From Promethearchaeota archaeon (GTDB lineage Archaea > Asgardarchaeota > Odinarchaeia > Odinarchaeales > JBHLKK01), in assembly GCA_048939465.1 (NCBI GenBank), contig JBHLPL010000001.1, positions 23,562 through 87,561 of the forward strand: a DNA stretch of 64,000 bases, read 5' to 3'. This document shows, piece by piece, positions 32,337 through 47,025 of the stretch. Both the position numbers and the translations under genes were made by a program. Numbering within the stretch: position 1 is the first letter of the stretch; every line of letters begins with the position of its first letter. Below the pieces are notes generated by a model. It had not been told where the DNA came from and searched no databases. It saw only the letters and a list, made by a program, of their open reading frames with translations.

Positions 32337-32744
32337 TCAAATGATCTTATTAATCTCTCTTGCGGCCCTGTCAGCTGCAATATATGCTGTTTGTGGAGAG
32401 CCTTGGCTTGTAATATAGCACATAAATAGTGCTTTTTGTCCTACGGCCGCAACAACTAAGTGCCCCATACCTTTCATGTTGGTTGCAATGAACCTATCTT
32501 GAGTAGCATTGATTGTTGAATACTTTATGCCCTGAACTACAACACTGGGCGTTTTGTTTGTAAAAGCTGAAACAATATCGGGTCCTTGAACTGTCCAGTT
32601 TTGTGTTTGGTGGATTATTCCCCCATTCATGCCAACTAATGCTGTGGCTGTTATGTTTGGATCAGACTGCATCAGGTTACTAGATATAGACGCAACATCT
32701 GCCATTATTATACCTCCGAGACCTTTCAGCTGTTTCGTTCTCAA
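32337..32744 (-). CDS. profilin
   Basis: 135 aa; alignable block-by-block to eukaryotic profilin: ATALVGMNGGIIHQTQNW ~ AAAIVGHDGSVWAQSASF; VVVQGIKYSTINATQDRFIATNMKGMGHLVVAAVGQKALFMCY ~ [42 protein letters not shown]; C-terminal helix. Confidence 0.6.
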   Translation of the reverse strand: MRTKQLKGLGGIIMADVASISSNLMQSDPNITATALVGMNGGIIHQTQNWTVQGPDIVSAFTNKTPSVVVQGIKYSTINATQDRFIATNMKGMGHLVVAAVGQKALFMCYITSQGSPQTAYIAADRAAREINKII

Positions 32745-32777
32745 TTGAATATAATCTCTCTTTAGTCATTTAAGTTT

Positions 32778-33245
32778 TTGGCAAGTTGCAAAGGGGTAAA
32801 ATATTGTTTGGCCAACAGTCCTTCTGAGAAGTTCAATCTGCCGAATAACTTACAAAATGGAAAGACATGTTCCGTGAGACTTATAAGAAACCAGGAAACA
32901 GATTGCTCAACGAGGGCAGCTATCTTGCAGGAAAGTCAGGAGATTGAAAAACGAGAAGAAGAGAAAACAAGTCCAATATCGGTACTTTCTTTTATTCTCT
33001 TCTGCGCCGTTGTAGTCTATCTGCTTCAAGCTCAGTATATTGGATTATTCCCTTTCCGACCATTAGATTTTCCTGACCGAGGCACCATGTTGATCTCCCC
33101 ATCTGGTCTCTATCTGATATATTGGGTCGGCATGATGGGATTGCTTTTGGGGCTTTATAGGGAAACAAAGGATAAACTGCTTCTCGGAGTGGTATTCTTC
33201 TTTGCGTCTCTGATATTCCTTTTCATCCTAATCTCCACATTATGA
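32778..33245 (+). CDS. hypothetical small membrane protein (start uncertain)
   Basis: C-terminal half has 3 hydrophobic helices; N-terminal part may be untranslated. Confidence 0.3.
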   Translation: MASCKGVKYCLANSPSEKFNLPNNLQNGKTCSVRLIRNQETDCSTRAAILQESQEIEKREEEKTSPISVLSFILFCAVVVYLLQAQYIGLFPFRPLDFPDRGTMLISPSGLYLIYWVGMMGLLLGLYRETKDKLLLGVVFFFASLIFLFILISTL

Positions 33246-33316
33246 CAGCTGAAGCTGATAATAACGCAACCTTAAAACGTTAGGCCTTATTAGTAAAAAG
33301 ACGGGATGGATAAAAC

Positions 33317-34276
33317 ATGACTCTTGAAGAAATGATCCTCAAGAAAAGATTGAAATATATTCTGTTTGGAGGAAAAGGCGGTGTGGGGAAAACAACCGCT
33401 GCTGCTGCGTGCTCAGTATGGGCCGCTCAACAAGGAAGAGAGACACTCATAATAAGCACCGATCCTGCACATAGCTTATCGGACAGCCTAGCTCAGGATC
33501 TAAGTGGCGGAGACATCAAAGAAGTTCGAGGGGTACCTGATCTTTATGGATTGGAGGTGAATCCTCAAAAGGAGTTCTCAAAATATCAAAAAAGCCTTGA
33601 GTCGGCTTCTGATTCTTCTGAAATCGCAGGTATCCCGGGTTCTGAATTACTTGAGGATTTGGGAGGACTTACCCCACCAGGTGCAGATGAGGCCCTAGCA
33701 TTTGCAAAAGTGCTAGAATTCATCGAAAAAAGTGAGCACGACCTCATCATATTTGATACAGCACCCACGGGTCACACCCTGCGCCTACTGAGTCTGCCCG
33801 ACCTCCTGAATAGCTTCTTTGGCAAACTTCTCACTTTTAGGCTCAGGCTGTCCAGAGTCTGGGGAAGGATTAAGAGACTCTTTGGCCGAGGGGAGGAAGA
33901 GGAGGACAGGACTCTTGAGACTTTAGAAAGACTTAAAACCACCATTGATGCGGCTGGCAAAGAACTCAAGGACGAAACGAAGACAAACTTCGTCATAGTC
34001 ATGATTCCCGAACTCATGGCTATCTATGAGACTGAGAGGCTGCTTTCGGCATTGTACGAATACGAGATTCCTGCAAGTTTTATTCTTGTAAATATGGTCT
34101 ATCCAGATATACCAGATTGTTGGTTCTGTAAGTCCAGAAAATCGATGCAGGATAAACATCTGAAGGAGATTAGAGAACTTTACGACGAGTTTACGATCAT
34201 AGAGATTCCCTTGGCTGAAACAGAGATTCGAGGAATAGAAGGATTAGAAAGGATCGGCAAAATCCTTTTCATCTAA
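33317..34276 (+). CDS. Get3/ArsA-family ATPase (tail-anchored-protein targeting factor homolog)
   Basis: P-loop GGKGGVGKTT; A-loop/switch DTAPTGHTLRLL; conserved CxxC pair (DIPDCWFCKSR) characteristic of Get3 dimer zinc site; single ATPase domain (319 aa). Confidence 0.8.
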   Translation: MTLEEMILKKRLKYILFGGKGGVGKTTAAAACSVWAAQQGRETLIISTDPAHSLSDSLAQDLSGGDIKEVRGVPDLYGLEVNPQKEFSKYQKSLESASDSSEIAGIPGSELLEDLGGLTPPGADEALAFAKVLEFIEKSEHDLIIFDTAPTGHTLRLLSLPDLLNSFFGKLLTFRLRLSRVWGRIKRLFGRGEEEEDRTLETLERLKTTIDAAGKELKDETKTNFVIVMIPELMAIYETERLLSALYEYEIPASFILVNMVYPDIPDCWFCKSRKSMQDKHLKEIRELYDEFTIIEIPLAETEIRGIEGLERIGKILFI

Positions 34277-36078: not shown

Positions 36079-36864
36079 ATGAAGTGTCCCCGATGCGATT
36101 ATGAGATTTCAGCAGATCAATTAACATGCCCGCAATGTGGTTTTAGAATGACGATTGAAAAACTTGAACGCGTAATTCCCTTGCTTAGACGCCCCGTTAG
36201 AACAACTGTAGAACCGTTATCTACCCTGCAGAGACTGAAAGGGACGTTCATTTCTCCAGCTTTGACCTTCTGGAACATTTCCAAAATCCCTGACAAAAAG
36301 GGATTCTTGTTCATTTTATTCTTCAATGCACTCCTTATTTCTCTCAATTACCCCATCTTATGGACGCACATAAATGTAATAGGATCTGAAACCTTCGTCG
36401 GAATTGTAAGTCTCCACATATGGGGGAGCTTTATTGGCTTGTTTCTATCTGGCCTTGGCATATTATTGCTCGCGTGGATTCTGATCGTTTTTGCATTCTG
36501 GACAATCTCCAGAGTGACTGGAGGAAAAGGATCATATCGAGCAACCTTTCTGGTCACAAGCTATGCCTTTGCCCCTCTTATAATCGCAAGGTTAATTTCT
36601 CTGGTTGTCTTGGCAGGTGGACTCCCAAGCGTTACCATTACCGAAGCCATGGCTCCTGGAGAATTGGGCACAGCACTGATACCTTTACTCAATTCTGTAG
36701 TCTGGACTTATTCCCTTGGTGTTGAGACTTTCTTTTGGCTTTGGTCTGCACTGCTTTCTTCATTGGCAATAAGAGAAACTCAGAATACGTCAACTCTCAA
36801 AGCGGTAGTAATGGCTTACGCTGTTATCATATGCTCTCTACTAATACTTTGGACAATTCATTGA
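36079..36864 (+). CDS. zinc-ribbon-containing polytopic membrane protein (possibly Yip1-like)
   Basis: N-terminal CPRCDYEISADQLTCPQCGF zinc ribbon followed by ~5 TM helices; family assignment tentative. Confidence 0.35.
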   Translation: MKCPRCDYEISADQLTCPQCGFRMTIEKLERVIPLLRRPVRTTVEPLSTLQRLKGTFISPALTFWNISKIPDKKGFLFILFFNALLISLNYPILWTHINVIGSETFVGIVSLHIWGSFIGLFLSGLGILLLAWILIVFAFWTISRVTGGKGSYRATFLVTSYAFAPLIIARLISLVVLAGGLPSVTITEAMAPGELGTALIPLLNSVVWTYSLGVETFFWLWSALLSSLAIRETQNTSTLKAVVMAYAVIICSLLILWTIH

Positions 36865-36931: not shown

Positions 36932-37954
36932 TCATCGGATCATCACTATGAGTTTGATGGGACTGGCCAGATTCTTATCATTAACAAAAATGAGATCTCC
37001 TTCTTTCACTCCGGTATCTTTCAATACGATGCTATCCGGGACAATCTTGCCCTCGATAATAATCTCAGGATTCTGAAGGCCATAGGTCATTATCAGCCTG
37101 TTTTTTAATTCTTGAATGGGTTCTTCCAGGTTCACGACATATTTGACGCCTACGGTGCGGTACTTAGGACTGCAAACAACACAGCTCGGATTACGGACAA
37201 GCCTAATCTTTGTAAAAGACTGGCTCAATCCATCGTAAAATAGATAGTTGTCAAGCAGATCCTTGCGTTCTAAAATAATCTTTAGCGTTTCTTGTGCTTG
37301 GATTCCTCCGACTACTGTAGTTGTTGTGGAAATCATTGGAAATTTCTCCTTCTCTTGCTCTTTCTCTTTTCGCGCCTCTCCAGGAAGAGTACAGGCCTTC
37401 TGTAATCTTTCTTTTGGTATCAATGGTTGGCATTCCAGGCAGGGCGTTTCAAAGGGGATGATTACCTGAACGTTCCCCCACCAGCCAAATAATCCTCCAT
37501 GAATTAGAGGCTTATTCAAGTGAACACACATGGAATTCAGCCATCTGCGTGCCTCAAAAGTATCTAAGCCTTCCACGATGACCGAACTTCTCTGGTAGAC
37601 TTCTTTATCTATCGACCGCATATCCTTCATATAGGTACTTACCTTGACTTCCGGATTGAGTTTCTCAAGGAATTCCTCAGCAGCCTCCACTTTCAATCTT
37701 CCAATATCTTCTTCTCTGAAAAGTATTTGTCGGTTCAAATTCGAAAGCTCAATTGTGTCGTTGTCTATAAGAATCAACTTTCCTATTCCCATCAACGCCA
37801 GATCAAGAGCAACTACCGAGCCTAAAGCCCCCACTCCTACGACCAAAACCGTTGAATTGCGAATCAATCCTTGGTCCCATTCTTCGAGAAGTTCCTGTCT
37901 ATGATAACGACCTTCTCCTTCTTTCAAGCCTGCCCCCTCCTGAGGTGTTTCCAA
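36932..37954 (-). CDS. ubiquitin-activating E1-like enzyme (ThiF/MoeB/UBA family) with C-terminal beta-grasp-like extension
   Basis: Rossmann nucleotide motif VLVVGVGALGSVVALDLALMGIGKLILIDNDTIELSNLNRQ; catalytic region; two CxxC zinc pairs (TPCLECQ, PSCVVCSP); ~90-aa C-terminal extra domain. Confidence 0.8.
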   Translation of the reverse strand: METPQEGAGLKEGEGRYHRQELLEEWDQGLIRNSTVLVVGVGALGSVVALDLALMGIGKLILIDNDTIELSNLNRQILFREEDIGRLKVEAAEEFLEKLNPEVKVSTYMKDMRSIDKEVYQRSSVIVEGLDTFEARRWLNSMCVHLNKPLIHGGLFGWWGNVQVIIPFETPCLECQPLIPKERLQKACTLPGEARKEKEQEKEKFPMISTTTTVVGGIQAQETLKIILERKDLLDNYLFYDGLSQSFTKIRLVRNPSCVVCSPKYRTVGVKYVVNLEEPIQELKNRLIMTYGLQNPEIIIEGKIVPDSIVLKDTGVKEGDLIFVNDKNLASPIKLIVMIR

Positions 37955-38364
37955 GTAGCATACCTTTTGATATACTCTTTTACTTTCTCCTTGAATTCTC
38001 TTGGCGACTCACGCATTTCCTTTGCAGCCACTCGATTCAGAGGGTCGTGAGGGTTGGGAAAGCTCAGGACGTTTCTTATGGCCTCGATTACGCCAACTAA
38101 ATTTATGCTTGGAGACCAATCTTTCCCCAGAATGCCCAGACATATTCTTCCCTCCCTGGTGATATTTGGATGCCAAATTGGAGTCAAGAACCGAGCTTTG
38201 GGAGGTTTAAATGGATAGCTTCTGTCTACTTCTAACTCGATTTGGAAGACCCCTCCATCGTAAACACTGGTACCTAGAATGAATCCACGCCATTTTGTGA
38301 GGTCTCCACTTAGCGGTTGAAATGAAGGTTCCTCCTCCTCTATGCTCTTAGCTTCAAGTGCCAA
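37924..38364 (-). CDS. ubiquitin-conjugating enzyme E2 (UBC fold, catalytic Cys present)
   Basis: FKPPKARFLTPIWHPNITREGRICLGILGKDWSPSINL: canonical HPN motif and active-site Cys; overlaps E1 by 31 nt. Confidence 0.8.
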   Translation of the reverse strand: MALEAKSIEEEEPSFQPLSGDLTKWRGFILGTSVYDGGVFQIELEVDRSYPFKPPKARFLTPIWHPNITREGRICLGILGKDWSPSINLVGVIEAIRNVLSFPNPHDPLNRVAAKEMRESPREFKEKVKEYIKRYATWKHLRRGQA

Positions 38365-38540
38365 GCGCTCTAAGAATGCCTCTCTGTCTAAAATCTTTCC
38401 ATACCTCCCTCTGAATATGTAAAATCACAAAGAAATAAGTATGTGAAAAATATTAAAACCTTATAGTTCAGGATCGATCCTCCTGAATGATACGGCCTTC
38501 TATCCTCCAGATGAAAGATCCTAAGCGAAATAGAAAGTAT

Positions 38541-38783
38541 TTAAGGATCTCCTCCTTCGGTTCTAGTAATAAGATACACCTTATCTCTTTCGACGCACCC
38601 TGCTTCTTTAAGTGTCGTACTATCCAGCTGTTCCATACCTTTGAATGCAAGGACAAAGGTTGCTTCTGGTATACGTCTCTGTCTGGCAATTATTCTCTTG
38701 AGTTCACCGAATGAAATATTAGGCGCCACATCAAGTGTGGTCTTCATTCCACCAATTGCAGAGACAATCTCTACCTCCATCAT
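38541..38783 (-). CDS. ubiquitin-like beta-grasp protein with C-terminal GG-DP (pro-ubiquitin)
   Basis: alignable to ubiquitin over its length (MEVEIVSAIGGMKTTLDVAPNISFGELKRIIARQRRIPEATFVLAFKGMEQLDSTTLKEAG..LITRTEGG) and ends ..TEGGDP. Confidence 0.65.
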   Translation of the reverse strand: MMEVEIVSAIGGMKTTLDVAPNISFGELKRIIARQRRIPEATFVLAFKGMEQLDSTTLKEAGCVERDKVYLITRTEGGDP

Positions 38784-38798
38784 AAATCACCCCAATTA

Positions 38799-39038
38799 CT
38801 ATTTTACCATAAGATGTCTAGTGGAGAGTTTTCTTTTGCAGAAGGGACATTGGCCCTTCGTCTTAACCCATTCCAGCAGTTCAATCTTGTGAGCTTGGCT
38901 TCCGCAGTATGGACAGTATATTGTCTTCTCGCCGGGTCTTATTGGCAGAAGGCAAACGATGCACCTTTCTGGCTCCCAAAGCCACTCTCCTAAGACTCTA
39001 ACTTGCTTTATTACGAATCTGTCAGCTGCCTTCGACAT
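38799..39038 (-). CDS. Cys-rich RING-like zinc-finger protein (candidate E3)
   Basis: CIVCLLPIRPGEKTIYCPYCGSQAHKIELLEWVKTKGQCPFCK: CxxC-x12-CxxC-x4-H-x15-CxxC; paralogous to N-terminus of the next gene. Confidence 0.5.
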   Translation of the reverse strand: MSKAADRFVIKQVRVLGEWLWEPERCIVCLLPIRPGEKTIYCPYCGSQAHKIELLEWVKTKGQCPFCKRKLSTRHLMVK

Positions 39039-39181: not shown

Positions 39182-39913
39182 CTAACCCCCCAAAACCTCT
39201 TCAAACATATCAAGCAAAACATAGCGAGTTGAGGGATCAATGGCAACAGTTCCATAAGTTGGCACACCCAATAGTCTTCCCACAAGTTCTGGGTCCAATG
39301 AGTGGGGAAGGTCTTGTTTGTTTGCAATTGCAACAACCTTTGCATCAGGAACACGTTCTTGGACGAGGCTCATGATTCTCTTCCTGGTCCTGGCTACACT
39401 CGTTACAGACGAGTCCGTAACAACGATGATAATATCTGAGCCCCTGATCATTACGTCCCAGAATCGACCAAATCGTTCTTGTCCAGCGAAATCCCACACG
39501 ATCACTTTTACTGGCGTTTCCACCCCTTCGAGATTTTTGATATTGACCATTAGGGTAGGAGTATGGTTTATGGGAACTTCTTCATCAAAAAGCAATTTCA
39601 GCAGTGTTGTCTTGCCTGCACCGCCAAATCCCAAAAAGGAGACCTTAATGATCCTCATTAGCTGGCTTACGGAAAGTCTCATCTTACAGAAGGGACATTT
39701 ACCTTTGGTCTTAACCCATTCAAGTATTTCTCTTCTGTGAGCAATACATCCACAGTTTGGGCAGTCTATTGTCTTATCGTTAGGTCCTATTGGCAGAAGG
39801 CATACTATGCAATTCTTCGCTCCCACTTTTTCCACCCAGTCTTCCGATCTGTGGATATTGCAGAGCGTCAAATCGATTAGGAAATCCTGTCTCTCTTCAC
39901 TGGGCCACCTCAA
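39182..39913 (-). CDS. RING-like zinc finger fused to small GTPase
   Basis: N-terminal CIVCLLPIGPNDKTIDCPNCGCIAHRREILEWVKTKGKCPFCK; GTPase G1 GFGGAGKTTL, G3 WDFAGQERF, G4 ANKQDL. Confidence 0.7.
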   Translation of the reverse strand: MRWPSEERQDFLIDLTLCNIHRSEDWVEKVGAKNCIVCLLPIGPNDKTIDCPNCGCIAHRREILEWVKTKGKCPFCKMRLSVSQLMRIIKVSFLGFGGAGKTTLLKLLFDEEVPINHTPTLMVNIKNLEGVETPVKVIVWDFAGQERFGRFWDVMIRGSDIIIVVTDSSVTSVARTRKRIMSLVQERVPDAKVVAIANKQDLPHSLDPELVGRLLGVPTYGTVAIDPSTRYVLLDMFEEVLGG

Positions 39914-40633: not shown

Positions 40634-41689
40634 TTATGTGTAAAATCTATCTCTCTGTCTTTGTCTCTCTTCTAAGAAACTCACAAAGTCACTTAGGGTC
40701 GGATCATTCTCAAGTTCGTCGTGAATCAGTTCGGCTACGCTCAGAATTGATGCTGCAACATGTGCCTTGACTTGTTGTGTTTTCTTGTCGTCGGGCTTCA
40801 GGAAACTCATTATTCTTTTTTGAAACTGCTGTAGAGTCAGCAACCTATCAACCAAAAGACCGAATGATTTCATAATGTTCTCTCTTGTGGCTGAAGCATC
40901 CTCCTTTATTCCTACTGCTTCCATGGCACGAAGACATGGATATAATATCTCAGAGCCAAACCAATTTACCAGAAGGCCTCTTTTGTCTATGGTCTTGAGA
41001 AAAACCGATAGTGGAATCCCAAGTTCTTTTATTCTATTCTTCGCCAGCTGGGCCGCTTTTTCTAGCCCTACTTCATGTGTGGCCTTAAGAACCCCTACCA
41101 TGATTGAACTGACGGCAATGGAAAGAACCCTCCTGAGATTGTTGGCTTCCAACAGCTTGTTGATTAGCTCCTTTGCTTCATCCAGATTAATGTCTGATAT
41201 GACAAATGATTTTACGATTTCCAAAAGCTGACCTCTGACCTCTAAGCTTTTCCCGTAACCTGTTCCGTCCAGGGCAAGTAGAGTATAGGCAGTCTCAAGT
41301 ATTTCTTTATCAAACCATTGCACGACCAGGTATTCATTTGTAACCCTTCTCAAATCTGTGGCGGTCTTAACGTCTTTGAGTATATGTGCTAGCCGTTCAA
41401 TAAACGTTTCAAAAATCGCAACTATGTATTCTTGGACATTTGCGTCTATTCCGTATCTCTTCAACTCTTTTTTTATAATCTTTCTAAAGCCGGACTCGGT
41501 TATCTCTCCCTTCAAGTATTTAATGAACGGAGCAAAAAGATCTTTTTTGAGATTGTCCAAAGAGGGCGGCTTGAGTTCCCTGACTAGCCTCTCAGTCATT
41601 CCCCACACTATGAAATAGTAGAAGTCTCCCATTGCCTTATAGTATTCGCTAGCGAATTCCTCACCCAATTGCTGCTCACCTCTCATCAA
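40634..41689 (-). CDS. hypothetical all-alpha protein (operonic partner of HerA-like ATPase)
   Basis: 351 aa; overlaps upstream ATPase gene by 14 nt, suggesting co-translation. Confidence 0.4.
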   Translation of the reverse strand: MMRGEQQLGEEFASEYYKAMGDFYYFIVWGMTERLVRELKPPSLDNLKKDLFAPFIKYLKGEITESGFRKIIKKELKRYGIDANVQEYIVAIFETFIERLAHILKDVKTATDLRRVTNEYLVVQWFDKEILETAYTLLALDGTGYGKSLEVRGQLLEIVKSFVISDINLDEAKELINKLLEANNLRRVLSIAVSSIMVGVLKATHEVGLEKAAQLAKNRIKELGIPLSVFLKTIDKRGLLVNWFGSEILYPCLRAMEAVGIKEDASATRENIMKSFGLLVDRLLTLQQFQKRIMSFLKPDDKKTQQVKAHVAASILSVAELIHDELENDPTLSDFVSFLEERQRQRDRFYT

Positions 41690-44282
41690 TGAGGTTTATC
41701 AGAGTATTCAAGAGTTCGCAGAACTTCCTGGCGTCTTCTTCGCTAGATGATACACCGACAAGAGATGCGATAGCGATTCTGTTGTTCTTTGCCGAAGTAA
41801 TGGCAATTCTCAAGTTTCCCTTTCCAGCCAAAATTACAGGTATCTCCTCATCTGATGGCACACTATCGATTGTCCAATTCTTGGATTTCAGTAAATCATG
41901 GATCTCCTGCAGGACTACTTGAGGTTCCTTGGATACTTTCTTGTGACAAGTCTTGGAATATACCTTGATATCACTTGGGAACAAATGTTCGTGATATCTA
42001 TACCTCATAAGTCTATTTAGAAATCTTTTTAACATGTCATCTGGAACATCAAGGGTCTTCGGTGCTGGTATTTCATAAGATCCGGCCGCTGCCACTTTTT
42101 CTGAGTCTTCGGGGTTGGCCCCTTCTTCAATGACTTCTTCGTCAGGTATTGCATATTCAATAAGCTTTGGAGATGCTTCTCTTCCGGCATGCTGACTTGT
42201 TCTGGGTCGAATTCTCAAAACAAATCCCCGGTTCGTAGTTAGTCTGGTTGACTGATCCATTATTATGGGGGTTCCAACTGGAAGGCTTCTTATGAAACTC
42301 GACTTTGAAATTTCTTTGGGAATCTCTGCCGGGGATCTTTTCATGAGTGCCTTAATATCATCTGCATAAGTCAAGTTGTGAGCAATCAGAATATCTACTT
42401 GAGAGAGGATACGGGCGTCAGTTGCTGCTGGTTGTTGGGTACACAACAACAGCCCACATCCCGGTTTTCTGCCTTCTTTAGCGTAATCAATGAGGGGCTC
42501 AGAAGCAATTGTCTCTCCATCTGAAGGGACTACTTGCTGGGCTTCGTCTATTAGAAGCCAGGTTACTGGTATCTTTTCTTCTATATCCCCATATCCGAGA
42601 TGTTTTGCCTCAATCGTTCTGGAGATCTTCTTTCGCTCTCTTAGGATCTTCCGTGCAAGAATCCCAACTACCAACTCCCGGATACTGTCCCCCAGAAAGC
42701 TTACATCTACTATAGTAATCTGATTTGGAACAACTATTTCGTTGAATGCTGTCCCTTTCTTAGAGAATATCCCCCATTGTTTGGCGGATTCCAGTCTAGA
42801 AATAACGGCTCTTCGAGTATCAAGTCTGAATCCTCCTTCCTTGGAAAGGATTTCCGTATCATCTTGAACGCACTTTATCATATCGTCAATAGTGTAATCT
42901 TCTCCTTTACCATCAATACGCATTCGGTTTCCATAGGCATCCACCACGGAATAGCCGTCTCTAACCTTATTGACTACTCTTCCGGTCAGAAAACCTCTTG
43001 GACTGGACTGCTCCAGTTTAAAGAGATAACACCAATCATCTGCAGTAAGCTCACCAGGCTTTATCGAGAATGCATCATCTCTTGTTTGTTCTGGAATCTG
43101 ATGGAATAATCCTACAGGAACTAGGACCTGAACGTTTGAATATCCCTCTGGGTCTAGTTTCCATTCCCCAAGATTCTCTAGCTCGTCCTTCTCCCAGTTC
43201 GGATATTTCATGCTCCAAAATATGCCCATCGGATCAACTATCACAACAGCTATCCCGAGACCACATCTAGCTAGTTCTTCAGCAATGACTCCGAGTGTGT
43301 ATGATTTTCCGGATCCCCGATGGCCGCATATGAAAATAACGTGGGGTTTCACTGCGTCTACCAGTACCTTACGGCCGAAATACCCTTTACCGCCAGCAGG
43401 TTTTTCGCAGATCCTCCCAATATACAAAGTCCCACGACATCCAAATTTCTCTTGAAATTGCTTGGTCCTCCCAACAATAACTGACTCTCCGAGACAGTCA
43501 TCAAGGAGTCTCAGCTCCTCCTTCATTGCGGGGCTGTATTCAACAGGAAACGATTCCTCCTTGAGGACTCTCATCTCCCCCCTTACGTGGTTGATGAGCA
43601 TCTGCAGTTCTTCTATACTTCTCGGAGGTATGGTCAGCATGCTTTCTATATATTTCCGAAGCTTATCCTTCTTTGGATAGTGCCCAGAGGAATATCCTGA
43701 GAGTTCCCACAGCATAAGCTCGATAGTCTCTTCTTTCGTCAGCCCCTCAAAAGGCACTGCGTCAACTGAAGCGGTGTCCAGAAATTTTGAATCACCCAAC
43801 GCGAGGTACAAAAGGAGGGACGCATTTATCCTATCGTTTCCGTCGAATTCCTTCAGCATACTGATAGCATTCTCTAGGTATCTCGGTTCTTTTTTCACGT
43901 TATATGCCTGAAGAAGTATGCGAAATCGATGTACGTCTATCTTGTTGTTAGATAGTGCGTAATCATATACCTTCTTCTCAGCCTCGTCAATATTTATTTC
44001 TAAGGCTCCCGAGGCTCCTTTCAATGCTTGAATGGTTTCCCAGGTATTCTTCAAAGGATCATCCTGAAATGCCCATTCCCCGGATGGTAATTGTGAGGAG
44101 AGAATGTCTTCGACAATGATTGATGCTATTTCCAGAAAGACAAGGTCTTTTGTCATCTGATAGACTCGTACGCATGCATCGACGAGGAACGGTCTATCAA
44201 CAGCTCTTGCGGATTCGGCACTGAAACTTGTTATGTAGTCTAGGATATGTGGTAATATTTCACATAGAGGTCTTCCATGCAA
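41676..44282 (-). CDS. HerA/DUF87-like P-loop ATPase with large novel N-terminal domain
   Basis: Walker A HVIFICGHRGSGKSYTLGVIAEEL, then VVIVDPMGIFW (HerA-like DphGEY equivalent); Walker B LLIDEAQQVVP; N-terminal ~290 aa with repeat-like SGEWAF..WETIQAL segment. Confidence 0.55.
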   Translation of the reverse strand: MHGRPLCEILPHILDYITSFSAESARAVDRPFLVDACVRVYQMTKDLVFLEIASIIVEDILSSQLPSGEWAFQDDPLKNTWETIQALKGASGALEINIDEAEKKVYDYALSNNKIDVHRFRILLQAYNVKKEPRYLENAISMLKEFDGNDRINASLLLYLALGDSKFLDTASVDAVPFEGLTKEETIELMLWELSGYSSGHYPKKDKLRKYIESMLTIPPRSIEELQMLINHVRGEMRVLKEESFPVEYSPAMKEELRLLDDCLGESVIVGRTKQFQEKFGCRGTLYIGRICEKPAGGKGYFGRKVLVDAVKPHVIFICGHRGSGKSYTLGVIAEELARCGLGIAVVIVDPMGIFWSMKYPNWEKDELENLGEWKLDPEGYSNVQVLVPVGLFHQIPEQTRDDAFSIKPGELTADDWCYLFKLEQSSPRGFLTGRVVNKVRDGYSVVDAYGNRMRIDGKGEDYTIDDMIKCVQDDTEILSKEGGFRLDTRRAVISRLESAKQWGIFSKKGTAFNEIVVPNQITIVDVSFLGDSIRELVVGILARKILRERKKISRTIEAKHLGYGDIEEKIPVTWLLIDEAQQVVPSDGETIASEPLIDYAKEGRKPGCGLLLCTQQPAATDARILSQVDILIAHNLTYADDIKALMKRSPAEIPKEISKSSFIRSLPVGTPIIMDQSTRLTTNRGFVLRIRPRTSQHAGREASPKLIEYAIPDEEVIEEGANPEDSEKVAAAGSYEIPAPKTLDVPDDMLKRFLNRLMRYRYHEHLFPSDIKVYSKTCHKKVSKEPQVVLQEIHDLLKSKNWTIDSVPSDEEIPVILAGKGNLRIAITSAKNNRIAIASLVGVSSSEEDARKFCELLNTLINLIDER

Positions 44283-44324
44283 ATGGTTTCCCCCATTGGC
44301 AGATTCAGATGTTTTCAGAAGGAA

Positions 44325-44939
44325 TCATGACCTGCTTTCCTTTAGTTTCTTAATTTCTTTTTCCAGCTCTGAGACCTTCTTCTCCGGTGCTGGAAGAGCA
44401 ATACCTGTTTCAACAGTTATCTCCTGATCGATTTCGGTCAACGTTTTTTCAATTTCCTTATCACTAATCTCTTGCGAAACCGTGATTTCGAGTCCTGATT
44501 CAGCGATCTCTTTCGACACCTCAAATTGCTGTAGCTGACCTTCAACTTCTTTAATCAATTTGGCTATCTTTGGTACCTTCACAGCGTTCTTAAGTCCCCC
44601 AAGGACGTTACGGAGACTACCTAATATTTTGGACAAATCAGTAACAGATTCGCTTTGTCTGAGTTTTACAATTAGTCCCTCTATGGTCAATCTGTAGTTG
44701 TCAATGCCAACTGCCCACTTCTGAAATTGCAGGTAATGCTTTGCGTACGTCTTTGCAGCCTCATTATTGCCCTTGATACGTTGAGTTCGAGCTTTAGTAC
44801 GGCTCTTGTCGCCTTCTCTTTCCAGTTGCATCCTTTGTCTATCGAGTTTCCGTGTGAGCAAATCCAACTGAAAAATGGCCTTCTCAAGCCTTTTTCTCTT
44901 AGACCCCCCTAACCAGTCAAACAAACGGCCTAACGACAA
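44325..44939 (-). CDS. ESCRT-III (Snf7/CHMP family; Vps2/24/46-like)
   Basis: 204 aa; basic N-terminal helices (KRKRLEKAIFQLDLLTRKLDRQRMQLERE...KGNNEAAKTYAKHYLQ) and acidic C-terminal helices with E/I-rich tail; Snf7-like charge asymmetry. Confidence 0.6.
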   Translation of the reverse strand: MSLGRLFDWLGGSKRKRLEKAIFQLDLLTRKLDRQRMQLEREGDKSRTKARTQRIKGNNEAAKTYAKHYLQFQKWAVGIDNYRLTIEGLIVKLRQSESVTDLSKILGSLRNVLGGLKNAVKVPKIAKLIKEVEGQLQQFEVSKEIAESGLEITVSQEISDKEIEKTLTEIDQEITVETGIALPAPEKKVSELEKEIKKLKESRS

Positions 44940-45100
44940 CTATTACACCTCATTAGTCACTGAAAGGTTGTACAACACACACAATTAAAGCTTACGAAAT
45001 TACATCAAATACGGCTTTTCATCACCTAAGTTTTTTAGGTTTGTTCTTCTAATAGTTAACTAGCCTATCGCAATGTCTACAGAATCCTATTTTCCTGAGG

Positions 45101-46264
45101 TTGGGATTGATGTCTGATAAGCTGTTCAAATACGCCACCCAGATGGCGAAGGAAGCTGTGAAACTTGACAAGCAAGGCAAACAGAAGCTGGCTGTACAGA
45201 AATATATTCATGCGGCCGATATCTTGATGAGGTTTCTGAAATTAACCGAGAATCCCGCACTGAGAAAAGTATGTTATGAAAAGGCGGAGCAGTATGTGCA
45301 AAGAGCTAAAGAACTACAAGGTGTAACACCAGGTCTGCCGGCAGTATCAGAAAAAGCAGCGGGGAAAGCGCTGACCAAGGAAGATCAAGCCCTCCAAGAA
45401 GCAATCTCGGATACCATAATCACTGAGAAACCAAGTGTTGAATGGGAAGACGTAGCAAATCTAGAGACGGCAAAACAAGCCTTGAGAGAGGCTGTTATCT
45501 TACCGATGCTCAGACCAGATATTTTTACTGGTGCAAGGGAACCTTGGCGTGGATTATTGTTGATCGGACCACCCGGATGTGGAAAAACACTGCTCGCAAA
45601 AGCTGTGGCGAACGAATGCAACGCAACATTCTTCAGCGCTGACGCAGCCTCTTTGGTTTCAAAGTGGCTGGGAGAATCGGAAAAACTTGTAAGCACATTA
45701 TTTACCGTTGCACGAAGTAGCTCCCCTTCCGTTGTGTTCATCGACGAAGTGGATGCTTTGGCAACAGTTAGATCGGGTGATGAGGTTGGAGGTGAGCGGA
45801 GAATGAAGACGCAGCTATTAATAGAAATGGATGGGGTTCGAAAACGAAAGGGAGAGCAAGTAGTAGTTCTTGGCGCCACGAACAGGCCATGGGATCTTGA
45901 CCCGGGTTTTCGTAGAAGGTTCGAAAAAAGAATTTATGTGCCCCTTCCTGATAAGGAAGGCCGTCGCGAGATATTTAAGATTCACGTCAGAGGAATTGAA
46001 ATAGCTTCAGATGTTGATTTTGATGAACTAGCGACTCTTACTGAGGGATACTCCGGCTCAGATATTGCGCTGATATGTAGGGATGCTGCCATGATGCCAA
46101 TACGTGAACTGGATACCGCAGGCACGTTGACTAGGAAAGATATCAAAGTTCGATCGGTAGATCGTGAGGATTTTCTGAAGTCCATGAAAAAGGTTAGGCC
46201 AACTGTTTCACCAGACGAACTGGAGAAATACGAGGAATGGACCAAAGAATTCGCATCAGAATGA
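45101..46264 (+). CDS. vps4: Vps4-like AAA ATPase (N-terminal MIT domain)
   Basis: MIT-like three-helix N-terminus (LDKQGKQKLAVQKYIHAADILMRFLKL...AEQYVQRAKELQ); AAA Walker A GPPGCGKTLLAKAVA; Walker B VVFIDEVD; second region of homology. Confidence 0.85.
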   Translation: MGLMSDKLFKYATQMAKEAVKLDKQGKQKLAVQKYIHAADILMRFLKLTENPALRKVCYEKAEQYVQRAKELQGVTPGLPAVSEKAAGKALTKEDQALQEAISDTIITEKPSVEWEDVANLETAKQALREAVILPMLRPDIFTGAREPWRGLLLIGPPGCGKTLLAKAVANECNATFFSADAASLVSKWLGESEKLVSTLFTVARSSSPSVVFIDEVDALATVRSGDEVGGERRMKTQLLIEMDGVRKRKGEQVVVLGATNRPWDLDPGFRRRFEKRIYVPLPDKEGRREIFKIHVRGIEIASDVDFDELATLTEGYSGSDIALICRDAAMMPIRELDTAGTLTRKDIKVRSVDREDFLKSMKKVRPTVSPDELEKYEEWTKEFASE

Positions 46265-46278
46265 ACTGGTGATATATA

Positions 46279-47025
46279 TTGTCGGTAAGGGAAAAGCCAC
46301 GTAAAAAAGCTGGGAAGTCTCAAAAGGAAGAAACTGACAAGAAGGAGCGAATCAAAGAAGAGCTTGAGGAACTCAAGGAAGAAGTTGAAACAATGGTGGA
46401 GGCAGAAGAAGCTGAGACAATAGAAGAGGTTGAGAAAATCCAAGAGCCTAGCGCTAGGCAACTTCCGAAGGCGGTTGCTGAGGAAATCTCCTCTGAATTG
46501 GAGAAGATCTGTAACTTATATGAATGGGTTGCAAATCCTGAACAAGTCAGATGGATGTATTGGATGCCCTCCAATAAAGAGCATATTGATTCATGGAGAG
46601 ACGAATGGGCTGATTTCTTGTTTCAATGGGCCCGAGCAAAAATCCTTCATATAGTAACACTGGTCTTGCTTATGGGTGAACACCCATTTGATAAGTTATC
46701 TCCAAAGGTGGATTCGCTGAGAGTTATTATGAAAACCCTAGCTGAGAAGGATCTTGCTGAATTCTTGGATAATAAAGAAACCAGATTGCGAATATACTGG
46801 AGGACTCTTAATGAGTGGGCAGAAATAATCTATAACTGGGCACTCAATACCGGAAGAATGGATATAAGTGTTTTTGATGTTATTAATGACAGAGGGGAAA
46901 AGTGGGGCTTTCACACGCTGCCAGCGAAAGAAATTAGACTCATCTTCAGGATTATGGTAGAGCGTGGGTTGGCCCGTTGGATGGACGAGAAGAGAGGCCA
47001 TATTGAGATAAGAGTAGACTTTTGA
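46279..47025 (+). CDS. Vps25-like ESCRT-II subunit (tandem winged helix) with acidic N-terminal extension
   Basis: IYWRTLNEWAEIIYNWALNTGRMDISVFDVIND ~ human VPS25 IMWRRPEEWGKLIYQWVSRSGQNNSVFTLYEL; C-terminal HTLPAKEIRLIFRIMVERGLARWMDEKRGHIEI ~ HGLDEATLLRALQALQQEHKAEII..DGRGVKF. Confidence 0.6.
   Translation: MSVREKPRKKAGKSQKEETDKKERIKEELEELKEEVETMVEAEEAETIEEVEKIQEPSARQLPKAVAEEISSELEKICNLYEWVANPEQVRWMYWMPSNKEHIDSWRDEWADFLFQWARAKILHIVTLVLLMGEHPFDKLSPKVDSLRVIMKTLAEKDLAEFLDNKETRLRIYWRTLNEWAEIIYNWALNTGRMDISVFDVINDRGEKWGFHTLPAKEIRLIFRIMVERGLARWMDEKRGHIEIRVDF

Follow-up and report, generated by a model that had tools for sequence, protein, structure and literature searches.

The question raised by this locus is whether the E1-like protein encoded on the minus strand of a 64,000-nucleotide stretch of a Promethearchaeota archaeon genome (assembly GCA_048939465.1, contig JBHLPL010000001.1, positions 23,562 to 87,561; hereafter the window) ends in a ubiquitin-fold domain (UFD) of the kind with which eukaryotic ubiquitin-type E1s recruit their E2, as a first-pass annotation made from the sequence had proposed. 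With a probability of about 0.75, we interpret the protein as the E1 of an Asgard ubiquitylation operon and as a minimal 'eukaryote-type' E1, composed of a single ThiF-like domain with a zinc site of four cysteines, a short flexible crossover loop that bears the catalytic cysteine, and an E2-docking C-terminal UFD attached through a short linker. This assignment draws on how the domains are arranged, on the tail's fold and structural relatives, and on the cysteine alignment, conservation and the operon context, all of which were observed here. Residues are numbered according to the 331-amino-acid form of the protein, and the coordinates of all features are collected in Table 1.

Structure prediction of the C-terminal segment returned an ordered beta-grasp fold. 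In the AlphaFold2 model of the full-length E1, computed from an alignment of 36 sequences, the mean predicted local distance difference test score (pLDDT) is 86.5, and the means of 10-residue blocks range from 84 to 95 over residues 261-331. Low confidence is limited to the N-terminus and to the crossover loop (residues 170-179 and 188-198), while within the C-terminal region confidence is lowest in the linker, with a block mean of 75. Modelled in isolation, the 79-residue tail reached a pLDDT of 92.1 and showed the order strand, helix, strand, short strand, 3_10 turn, strand and strand. A disordered or a rhodanese-like tail, the two outcomes named beforehand as speaking against a UFD, is ruled out by the full-length and the isolated models.

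When the tail was compared with the PDB by Foldseek, the top ranks were occupied by the UFDs of UBA3 (3fn1_A, 2nvu_B, 3gzn_B, 1y8x_B and 2lq7), human SAE2 (5fq2_B and 4w5v_B) and Arabidopsis SAE2 (6gum_B). The TMq values of these matches were 0.71-0.78, except for 6gum_B at 0.63, whereas ubiquitin and SUMO modifiers mostly scored 0.58-0.65, with engineered ubiquitin variants reaching up to 0.70. Since the extra residues of the tail are matched in the UFDs, its additional C-terminal strand is a feature of UFDs and not of ubiquitin. Judged from the predicted structure, the tail therefore qualifies as an E1 UFD, being a beta-grasp domain at the C-terminus that is structurally most similar to the UFDs of E1s, and the UFD-like reading of the first-pass annotation is borne out at this level.

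The whole E1 model was also compared with known structures, and it fitted best to E1s captured with their E2s, namely UBA3 trapped with Ubc12 (2nvu_B, TMq 0.73), SAE2 in a double-loaded E1-E2 complex (9dqb_B, 0.75) and UBA7 with UBE2L6 (8oif_A, 0.70). The corresponding values for E2-free structures of UBA3 and SAE2 were 0.60-0.65. This better fit to the E2-bound than to the E2-free enzymes indicates that the modelled position of the UFD resembles an E2-engaged state, and its predicted orientation would be that expected of a UFD presenting an E2.

Upstream of the tail, both the MoeB/ThiF core and the two CxxC pairs described by the first-pass annotation are present. The Pfam ThiF family (PF00899) matches residues 23-259 of the 340-amino-acid open reading frame (ORF) with E=1.1e-67 and 228 bits against a cut-off of 28.1, and the last ~80 residues of the ORF remain uncovered by this match. 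The nucleotide loop, GxGxxG, reads GVGALG (residues 31-36, 37820..37837). With a Rossmann-type adenylation domain that contains this motif and scores above threshold, the protein is a member of the E1 superfamily. Searched by sequence against PDB structures, it matched best the active adenylation domains from UBA7, UBA1, UBA3 and UBA6 (E about 1e-36 to 1e-33 for UBA7, UBA1 and UBA3), followed by ThiF, SAE2, MoeB and UBA5. The cysteines of both CxxC pairs are invariant across 36 homologues, and their pattern predicts a structural zinc site as in UBA3 and SAE2.

In both sequence and fold, this ThiF/MoeB-like core is well matched by ThiF and MoeB of E. coli, and beta-grasp carriers are the natural partners of ThiF/MoeB enzymes. 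Both points would agree with a tail that is a fused sulphur carrier or modifier of the MoaD/ThiS/SAMP type, which would make the protein a MoeB-like fusion of E1 and Ubl that serves sulphur transfer or carries out conjugation by itself. We consider this role extremely improbable.

A candidate for the catalytic cysteine emerged from local alignments, in which the E1 segment 'PKERLQKACTLP' pairs with 'PPEKSIPICTLK' of human UBA1 and 'PTQRTFPGCTIR' of SAE2, so that KACTLP of the E1 stands opposite PICTLK (UBA1, 9mc4_A) and PGCTIR (SAE2). As the alignment ends at UBA1 residue 635 and SAE2 residue 176, C179 lies opposite UBA1 C632 and SAE2 C173, the catalytic cysteines of those enzymes. C179 thus corresponds to the catalytic cysteine that canonical E1s have at the end of the crossover loop and is the predicted thioester site. 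Between CTLP and the PMISTTT helix, the window E1 has about 14 charged residues (GEARKEKEQEKEKF), compared with 200-250 residues in UBA1 and SAE2. The conserved element that follows the loop, 'FPMISTTTTVVGG', is the counterpart of 'IPAIATTT'. No separate SCCH/CYS domain is inserted after the catalytic position, where the loop is disordered in the model, and the enzyme has a canonical cysteine without a Cys domain. Neither the chain nor the operon provides an inactive/active adenylation pseudo-dimer, the E1 having one ThiF domain in 331 amino acids and the operon no second ThiF gene. In lacking these two defining features of canonical eukaryotic E1s, the window E1 resembles UBA5, MoeB and ThiF.

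The tail is a constant part of the protein family. It starts directly past the second CxxC pair in the 36-sequence alignment, and of the extra C-terminal domain of ~90 amino acids proposed initially, the domain is real and the size has to be reduced to 79. All of the best 120 of 1939 homologues (E of 1e-10 or better) keep it, and in 50 of 50 related genome loci the tblastn match reaches residue 323-331 of 331; in all Asgard E1 loci that the genome scan turned up, the tail is present. These 50 loci all belong to Asgard-type metagenome-assembled genomes, except two with the titles Thermoproteota and Deferrimicrobium, which we take to be mis-binned. The nearest loci, which share 86% identity with the window, carry the labels Hodarchaeota DZ1B.307 and Promethearchaeota H2M.176.

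Some E1s in the family are longer. Proteins of ~425 amino acids (P0024, P0027, P0032, P0039, P0044 and others, partly labelled Helarchaeota) have ~85 more residues past the UFD. This additional Helarchaeota-type tail is basic and ends ...RKIRYKLK..., and a Pfam search of the extension in P0032 gave no match.

Comparison of the window with three close relatives gave dN/dS ratios of 0.10-0.14 for the tail and 0.065-0.07 for the core, and identity to homologues is 27-53% for the tail and 49-60% for the full-length protein. Such somewhat faster evolution, together with the placement directly after the second CxxC pair, might point to a mainly structural role, in which the tail would serve as a cap, stabilising the zinc site or the dimer, would recruit no partner and would be kept only for folding. 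The less confidently modelled linker (pLDDT 75) is better explained by a mobile domain than by a packed cap, though, and the same zinc site or dimer is formed by bacterial and UBA5-type E1s that have no such domain. Moreover, the conserved surface-type residues K275, R277, K325, D298 and D317 suggest an interaction surface, and a mainly structural tail appears quite improbable.

While the tail is a UFD by fold, by sequence it is nearest to ubiquitin itself. The window tail matches Pfam ubiquitin (PF00240) below threshold (E=0.039, 14.2 bits versus a cut-off of 25.4), and three homologues (P0030, P0101 and P0107) exceed this cut-off at the same C-terminal position with 26.5-29.2 bits. Among 29 non-redundant family tails, with Pfam matches counted at E of 0.1 or better, PF00240 was matched by 25 (best 7.6e-9), E2_bind by three and UAE_UbL, weakly, by one. 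A profile of these 29 tails retrieved from the PDB ubiquitin, ubiquitin variants and the ubiquitin-like (UBL) domains of Rad23, Dsk2 and BAG6, with E of 1.8e-6 to 1e-2. In a single BLASTP comparison, the UFD and the operon's own ubiquitin were 23% identical with E=0.071, a suggestive value that is not significant. When the 79-residue tail was searched as a single sequence against 1.84 billion representatives, it gave 13 matches, too few for an analysis of distribution, which comprise apparent E1 C-terminal fragments, one 338-amino-acid protein matched at its C-terminus, and multi-repeat proteins that may be polyubiquitin-like. Two further searches contributed little: a PDB profile search with the UFD plus full-length homologues over all columns gave adenylation-domain matches only and is uninformative on the tail, and a protein search with a UFD-only profile gave a single 53-amino-acid fragment, probably an effect of the word prefilter.

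These relationships raise the alternative that the tail is a generic UBL signalling domain, either a ubiquitin mimic tethering the E1 to receptors (ESCRT-I/II or the proteasome) or an autoinhibitor occupying the E1's ubiquitin site. Such a role would account for profile matches to ubiquitin, its designed variants and the Rad23/Dsk2/BAG6 UBLs instead of UFDs, for the prevalence of PF00240 among the family tails, and for the apparent polyubiquitin-like proteins found beyond the E1 fragments; ESCRT genes also lie within 10 kb of the operon, and in L001 genes for ESCRT-I/II adjoin it. On the other hand, no UBL matches the tail's structure as well, or over as great a length, as the UFDs do. The tail is also placed as is the UFD in UBA3 and SAE2, straight after the second CxxC pair, and the whole chain superposes best on E2-bound E1s. 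We therefore judge a generic UBL unlikely, and note that this role and E2 docking are not mutually exclusive.

Several of the findings nevertheless count against the interpretation of the tail as an E2-docking UFD. The window tail does not reach the threshold of the E2_bind family (PF08825; E=0.077, 13.5 bits versus a cut-off of 33.2), no UFD was found among the PDB matches of the 29-tail profile, and the sequence is nearer to the Rad23 UBL and ubiquitin, with E about 1e-6 to 1e-5, than to the eukaryotic UFD families. Because of this closeness to ubiquitin, common ancestry with the eukaryotic UFDs is not proven. The alpha1 helices of eukaryotic E2s are usually basic; the E2 helix encoded here is acidic, unlike this usual pattern, and any UFD interface would be no simple copy of the eukaryotic one. 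Finally, in the E1-E2 complex described for Caldiarchaeum, the contact was not mapped to the UBL domain (PMC5654768).

The limits of both genes had to be revised. The E1 ORF at 36932..37954 of the first-pass annotation and the C-terminal peptide quoted from it are both real, the peptide being found exactly in the translation, and this longest ORF on the minus strand encodes 340 amino acids from its first TTG. However, L003 and L004, two relatives with 86% identity, have an in-frame TAG that separates the upstream from the downstream TTG, so the E1 start must be the TTG equivalent to window position 37927. The N-terminus then reads MKEGEGRYH in the window and MKK(N/G)EGRYH in L003 and L004, and the start of the homologue P0002 agrees with this assignment. 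Consequently, the 31-nucleotide overlap of E1 and E2 claimed before is an artefact of the longest ORF: the E2 stop TGA (37926..37924) and the E1 TTG share TTGA, and the real overlap is 4 nucleotides. This overlap and the Shine-Dalgarno-like GGAGGGGG at the E1 start suggest that translation of E1 is coupled to that of E2. L003 and L004 differ in having the E2 stop 5 nucleotides ahead of the E1 TTG, without a TTGA overlap.

At the other end of E2, the gene as first drawn (37924..38364) is too short, and conserved coding sequence continues to 38394. The ten codons upstream of TTG 38364 (ILDREAFLER) are conserved across 45 Asgard loci, the changes between the window and L003/L004 are all synonymous, and the extension aligns with the N-terminus MLSDEDFWAR of relatives that start at ATG. 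No in-frame ATG, GTG or TTG is available for the extended window E2. The codon aligned with the relatives' ATG is ATT (38394..38392, minus strand), located 9 nucleotides after GAGGGAGG, and on this sequence evidence the window E2 appears to start at a non-canonical ATT. Across 46 loci, the aligned start codon is ATG in 24, ATA in 10, ATT in six and TTG in one, and the other five have a TTG one codon upstream. Besides the window, the non-canonical starts occur in L003, L004, L009-L014, L021, L026, L035, L040, L045, L047 and L048, usually with no in-frame canonical start upstream and with a G-rich Shine-Dalgarno-like motif 7-10 nucleotides before. Many Asgard lineages thus seem to start E2 at AUU or AUA, for which no report was found in our literature searches. 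If used, such starts would keep E2 levels low, and gene callers will cut off the first helix of E2.

It is this first helix of the E2 fold that the 156-amino-acid form restores, and in eukaryotic E1-E2 complexes the helix is the main contact of the UFD. Residues 1-24 of E2 (38323..38394) are acidic in 45 of 45 Asgard pairs, many of them near-identical, with a net charge of -3 to -7. The most conserved residues of the UFD include basic ones: R277 is invariant, and K275 and K325 are each K or R in 42-44 of 45. The acidic E2 helix and the basic UFD residues lead us to the hypothesis of an interface whose polarity is reversed relative to eukaryotes.

Taken as a UFD-bearing E1, the protein would work as follows. 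Ubiquitin would be trimmed past Gly-Gly by removal of DP; the E1, presumably a homodimer as in MoeB, ThiF and UBA5, would adenylate the ubiquitin C-terminus and then carry ubiquitin as a thioester on Cys179. The UFD would dock the cognate E2, probably via the N-terminal helix and the beta1-beta2 loop of E2, and swing it towards Cys179 for transthiolation to E2 Cys85, after which RING proteins would direct transfer onto substrates. By analogy with characterised enzymes, we infer the homodimer, the adenylation of ubiquitin, the thioester chemistry on C179, E2 binding by the UFD and transthiolation. The operon linkage, the E2-engaged-like placement of the UFD and the complementary charges lend indirect support to E2 binding.

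Table 1. Features of the ubiquitylation operon and its E1 in the window.
Feature	Position	Strand	Remarks
E1-like ubiquitin-activating enzyme gene	36932..37927	minus	331 amino acids plus stop; corrected start TTG 37927
Adenylation core (ThiF/MoeB-type Rossmann), residues 1-252	37172..37927	minus	Pfam ThiF; AlphaFold2 pLDDT >90 over most
First CxxC pair, CLEC (C163, C166), presumed structural zinc site	37430..37441	minus	invariant in 36 homologues
Crossover loop, residues 170-198, flexible, charged	37334..37420	minus	pLDDT <50 at 170-179 and 188-198
Candidate catalytic Cys179 codon	37391..37393	minus	C179 invariant in 36-sequence alignment
Second CxxC pair, CVVC (C249, C252)	37172..37183	minus	directly ahead of C-terminal domain; invariant in 36 homologues
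C-terminal ubiquitin-fold domain (by predicted fold), S253-R331	36935..37171	minus	79 amino acids
Shine-Dalgarno-like GGAGGGGG	37933..37940	minus	5 nucleotides upstream of E1 TTG; read directly from sequence
E2 ubiquitin-conjugating enzyme gene	37924..38394	minus	156 amino acids; corrected 5' end, apparent start ATT 38394; Pfam UQ_con E=6e-38
E2 catalytic Cys85 codon	38140..38142	minus	HPN...C motif
E2 HPN motif	38164..38172	minus	
Ubiquitin gene	38541..38783	minus	80 amino acids, ends ...TRTEGGDP; Pfam ubiquitin 29 bits versus cut-off 25.4
Small RING-finger protein, E3 candidate	38799..39038	minus	79 amino acids; Pfam zf-RING_2 29.5 bits
RING finger fused to Arf/Roc-type small GTPase	39182..39913	minus	243 amino acids; heads the same gene string
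Yip1-family membrane protein with N-terminal zinc ribbon	36079..36864	plus	convergent to E1 gene

The genes for ubiquitin, E2, the E1 with its C-terminal UBL domain and a small RING protein lie on one strand within 36932..39038, joined by the RING-GTPase gene, and the order RING-Ub-E2-E1 is kept in about 40 Asgard loci. The locus is thus an Asgard/Aigarchaeota 'Cluster I/II' ubiquitylation operon. The window ubiquitin is a short precursor with two residues (DP) past Gly-Gly; its closest relatives end in GGHT and GGHP, and at most other Asgard loci the protein ends exactly at Gly-Gly. A regular-expression search for the JAMM motif (HxH...SxxD) in all ORFs of at least 90 amino acids in the 64-kb window found none, which indicates that the enzyme removing DP lies elsewhere or is of another type. 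The RING-GTPase fusion matches Pfam Arf (2.3e-20) and Roc (2.5e-16), with zf-RING_2 just under its cut-off at 25.5 bits, and L003 and L004 have a second RING match at the same relative position. This fusion could be a GTP-regulated E3.

Eukaryotic-signature genes surround the operon at 41676..47025 and 32337..34276. They encode a HerA-like ATPase (868 amino acids), Snf7/ESCRT-III, Vps4 (MIT+AAA+Vps4_C), an ESCRT-II subunit, profilin and an ArsA/Get3-type ATPase, and a histone-deacetylase-family protein is a further neighbour. The gene content around the E1 is that of an Asgard archaeon, in agreement with the genome scan. The ESCRT genes (Snf7, Vps4 and ESCRT-II) are at most 10 kb from the operon, and in L001 genes for a UEV/E2-like protein, Vps28 and EAP30 adjoin it; linkage of ubiquitin and ESCRT genes has been published before (PMC9192718). 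Downstream of E1, a Yip1-family gene is also convergent to E1 in L001 (7020..7781) and L002 (1443..2228), relatives of 59% and 91% identity, and this convergent arrangement is a conserved neighbourhood.

Among the known E1s, UBA3 (the NEDD8 E1, with its UFD classified as E2_bind, PF08825; 1Y8X, 2NVU, 3FN1) differs from the window E1 in being a heterodimer with NAE1 and in having its catalytic cysteine in a Cys-domain insertion, and the two UFDs are 15-17% identical in sequence. SAE2/UBA2 (the SUMO E1, UFD classified as UAE_UbL; 5FQ2, 4W5V, 6GUM, 3ONG) differs by a Cys domain of ~200 residues, the SAE1 partner and a C-terminal tail past the UFD. UBA5 (the UFM1 E1), MoeB and ThiF share with the window E1 the single adenylation domain of ~250 residues and a catalytic cysteine, where present, on a short crossover loop, and they match its core strongly in fold and sequence, but are without a UFD. 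UBA5 recruits its E2 via a short C-terminal peptide, and MoeB and ThiF are not known to have any E2. Bacterial Bil and CBASS E1s (BilD, Cap2) are likewise prokaryotic, have a true E2 and a ubiquitin-like protein as partners, and contain the four-cysteine zinc site; unlike the window E1, the Bil E1 possesses inactive and active adenylation domains and a CYS domain. The absence of a UFD from bacterial E1s, which the first-pass annotation had assumed, agrees with Bil E1s such as BilD (PMC10557695).

The closest known systems are the E1 of Caldiarchaeum subterraneum (CSUB_C1476) and the Cluster I/II E1s of Loki- and Heimdallarchaeota (Nunoura 2011; Koonin & Yutin 2014; PMC5654768), which come from the same operon type (Ub, E1, E2, small RING) and, as the window E1, join a ThiF core with a zinc site to a ubiquitin-like domain at the C-terminus. 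C-terminal UBL domains on Asgard E1s were reported by Hennell James et al. 2017 (PMC5654768), who noted that the domain was thought a eukaryotic innovation until archaeal E1s proved to have it (Koonin & Yutin 2014, their reference 23), and that homologues from bacteria and from Cluster III lack it. In Supplementary Table 2 of that study, the E1 tails of Loki- and Heimdallarchaeota are matched by PHYRE2 to 2nvu, 3gzn and 3kyc with 10-97% confidence. The same study found the Caldiarchaeum C-terminal domain nearest to ubiquitin by sequence, as is the window tail, the Caldiarchaeum E1/E2/RING cascade functional in vitro, and E1 and E2 forming a stable complex. In our searches of the literature, neither a solved structure of an Asgard E1 UFD nor a study devoted to one turned up. 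The UFD on archaeal E1s was already described in 2014-2017, and the present result is a confirmation, not a discovery.

To this earlier work we add a high-confidence structural model, according to which the domain is specifically UFD-like rather than merely ubiquitin-like, and an E1 that pairs a UFD with a minimal catalytic loop. The corrected gene boundaries restore the N-terminal helix of E2 and will be needed by anyone expressing these proteins; the apparently recurrent AUU/AUA start of Asgard E2 genes and the acidic E2 helix are further additions.

It is possible, though we hold it only tentatively, that the 331-residue, single-domain and ThiF-like E1 is a surviving intermediate of E1 evolution, which has a UFD and a catalytic cysteine at the position of UBA1 C632, precedes the insertion of the Cys domain and the inactive/active duplication, and has a UFD nearer in sequence to ubiquitin than to eukaryotic UFDs. 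If so, the UFD would have arisen by fusion of a copy of the ubiquitin gene to an E1, ahead of the other elaborations of eukaryotic E1s, and K275, R277 and K325 of the UFD would contact an unusually acidic E2 alpha1 helix, the reverse of the polarity in eukaryotes. Possession of a UFD is among the characters that set eukaryotic ubiquitin-type E1s apart from bacterial MoeB and ThiF, and its occurrence on Asgard E1s supports the view, published before (Koonin & Yutin 2014; Hennell James et al. 2017), that the E1-to-E2 hand-off known from eukaryotic ubiquitylation was already present in the archaeal ancestor.

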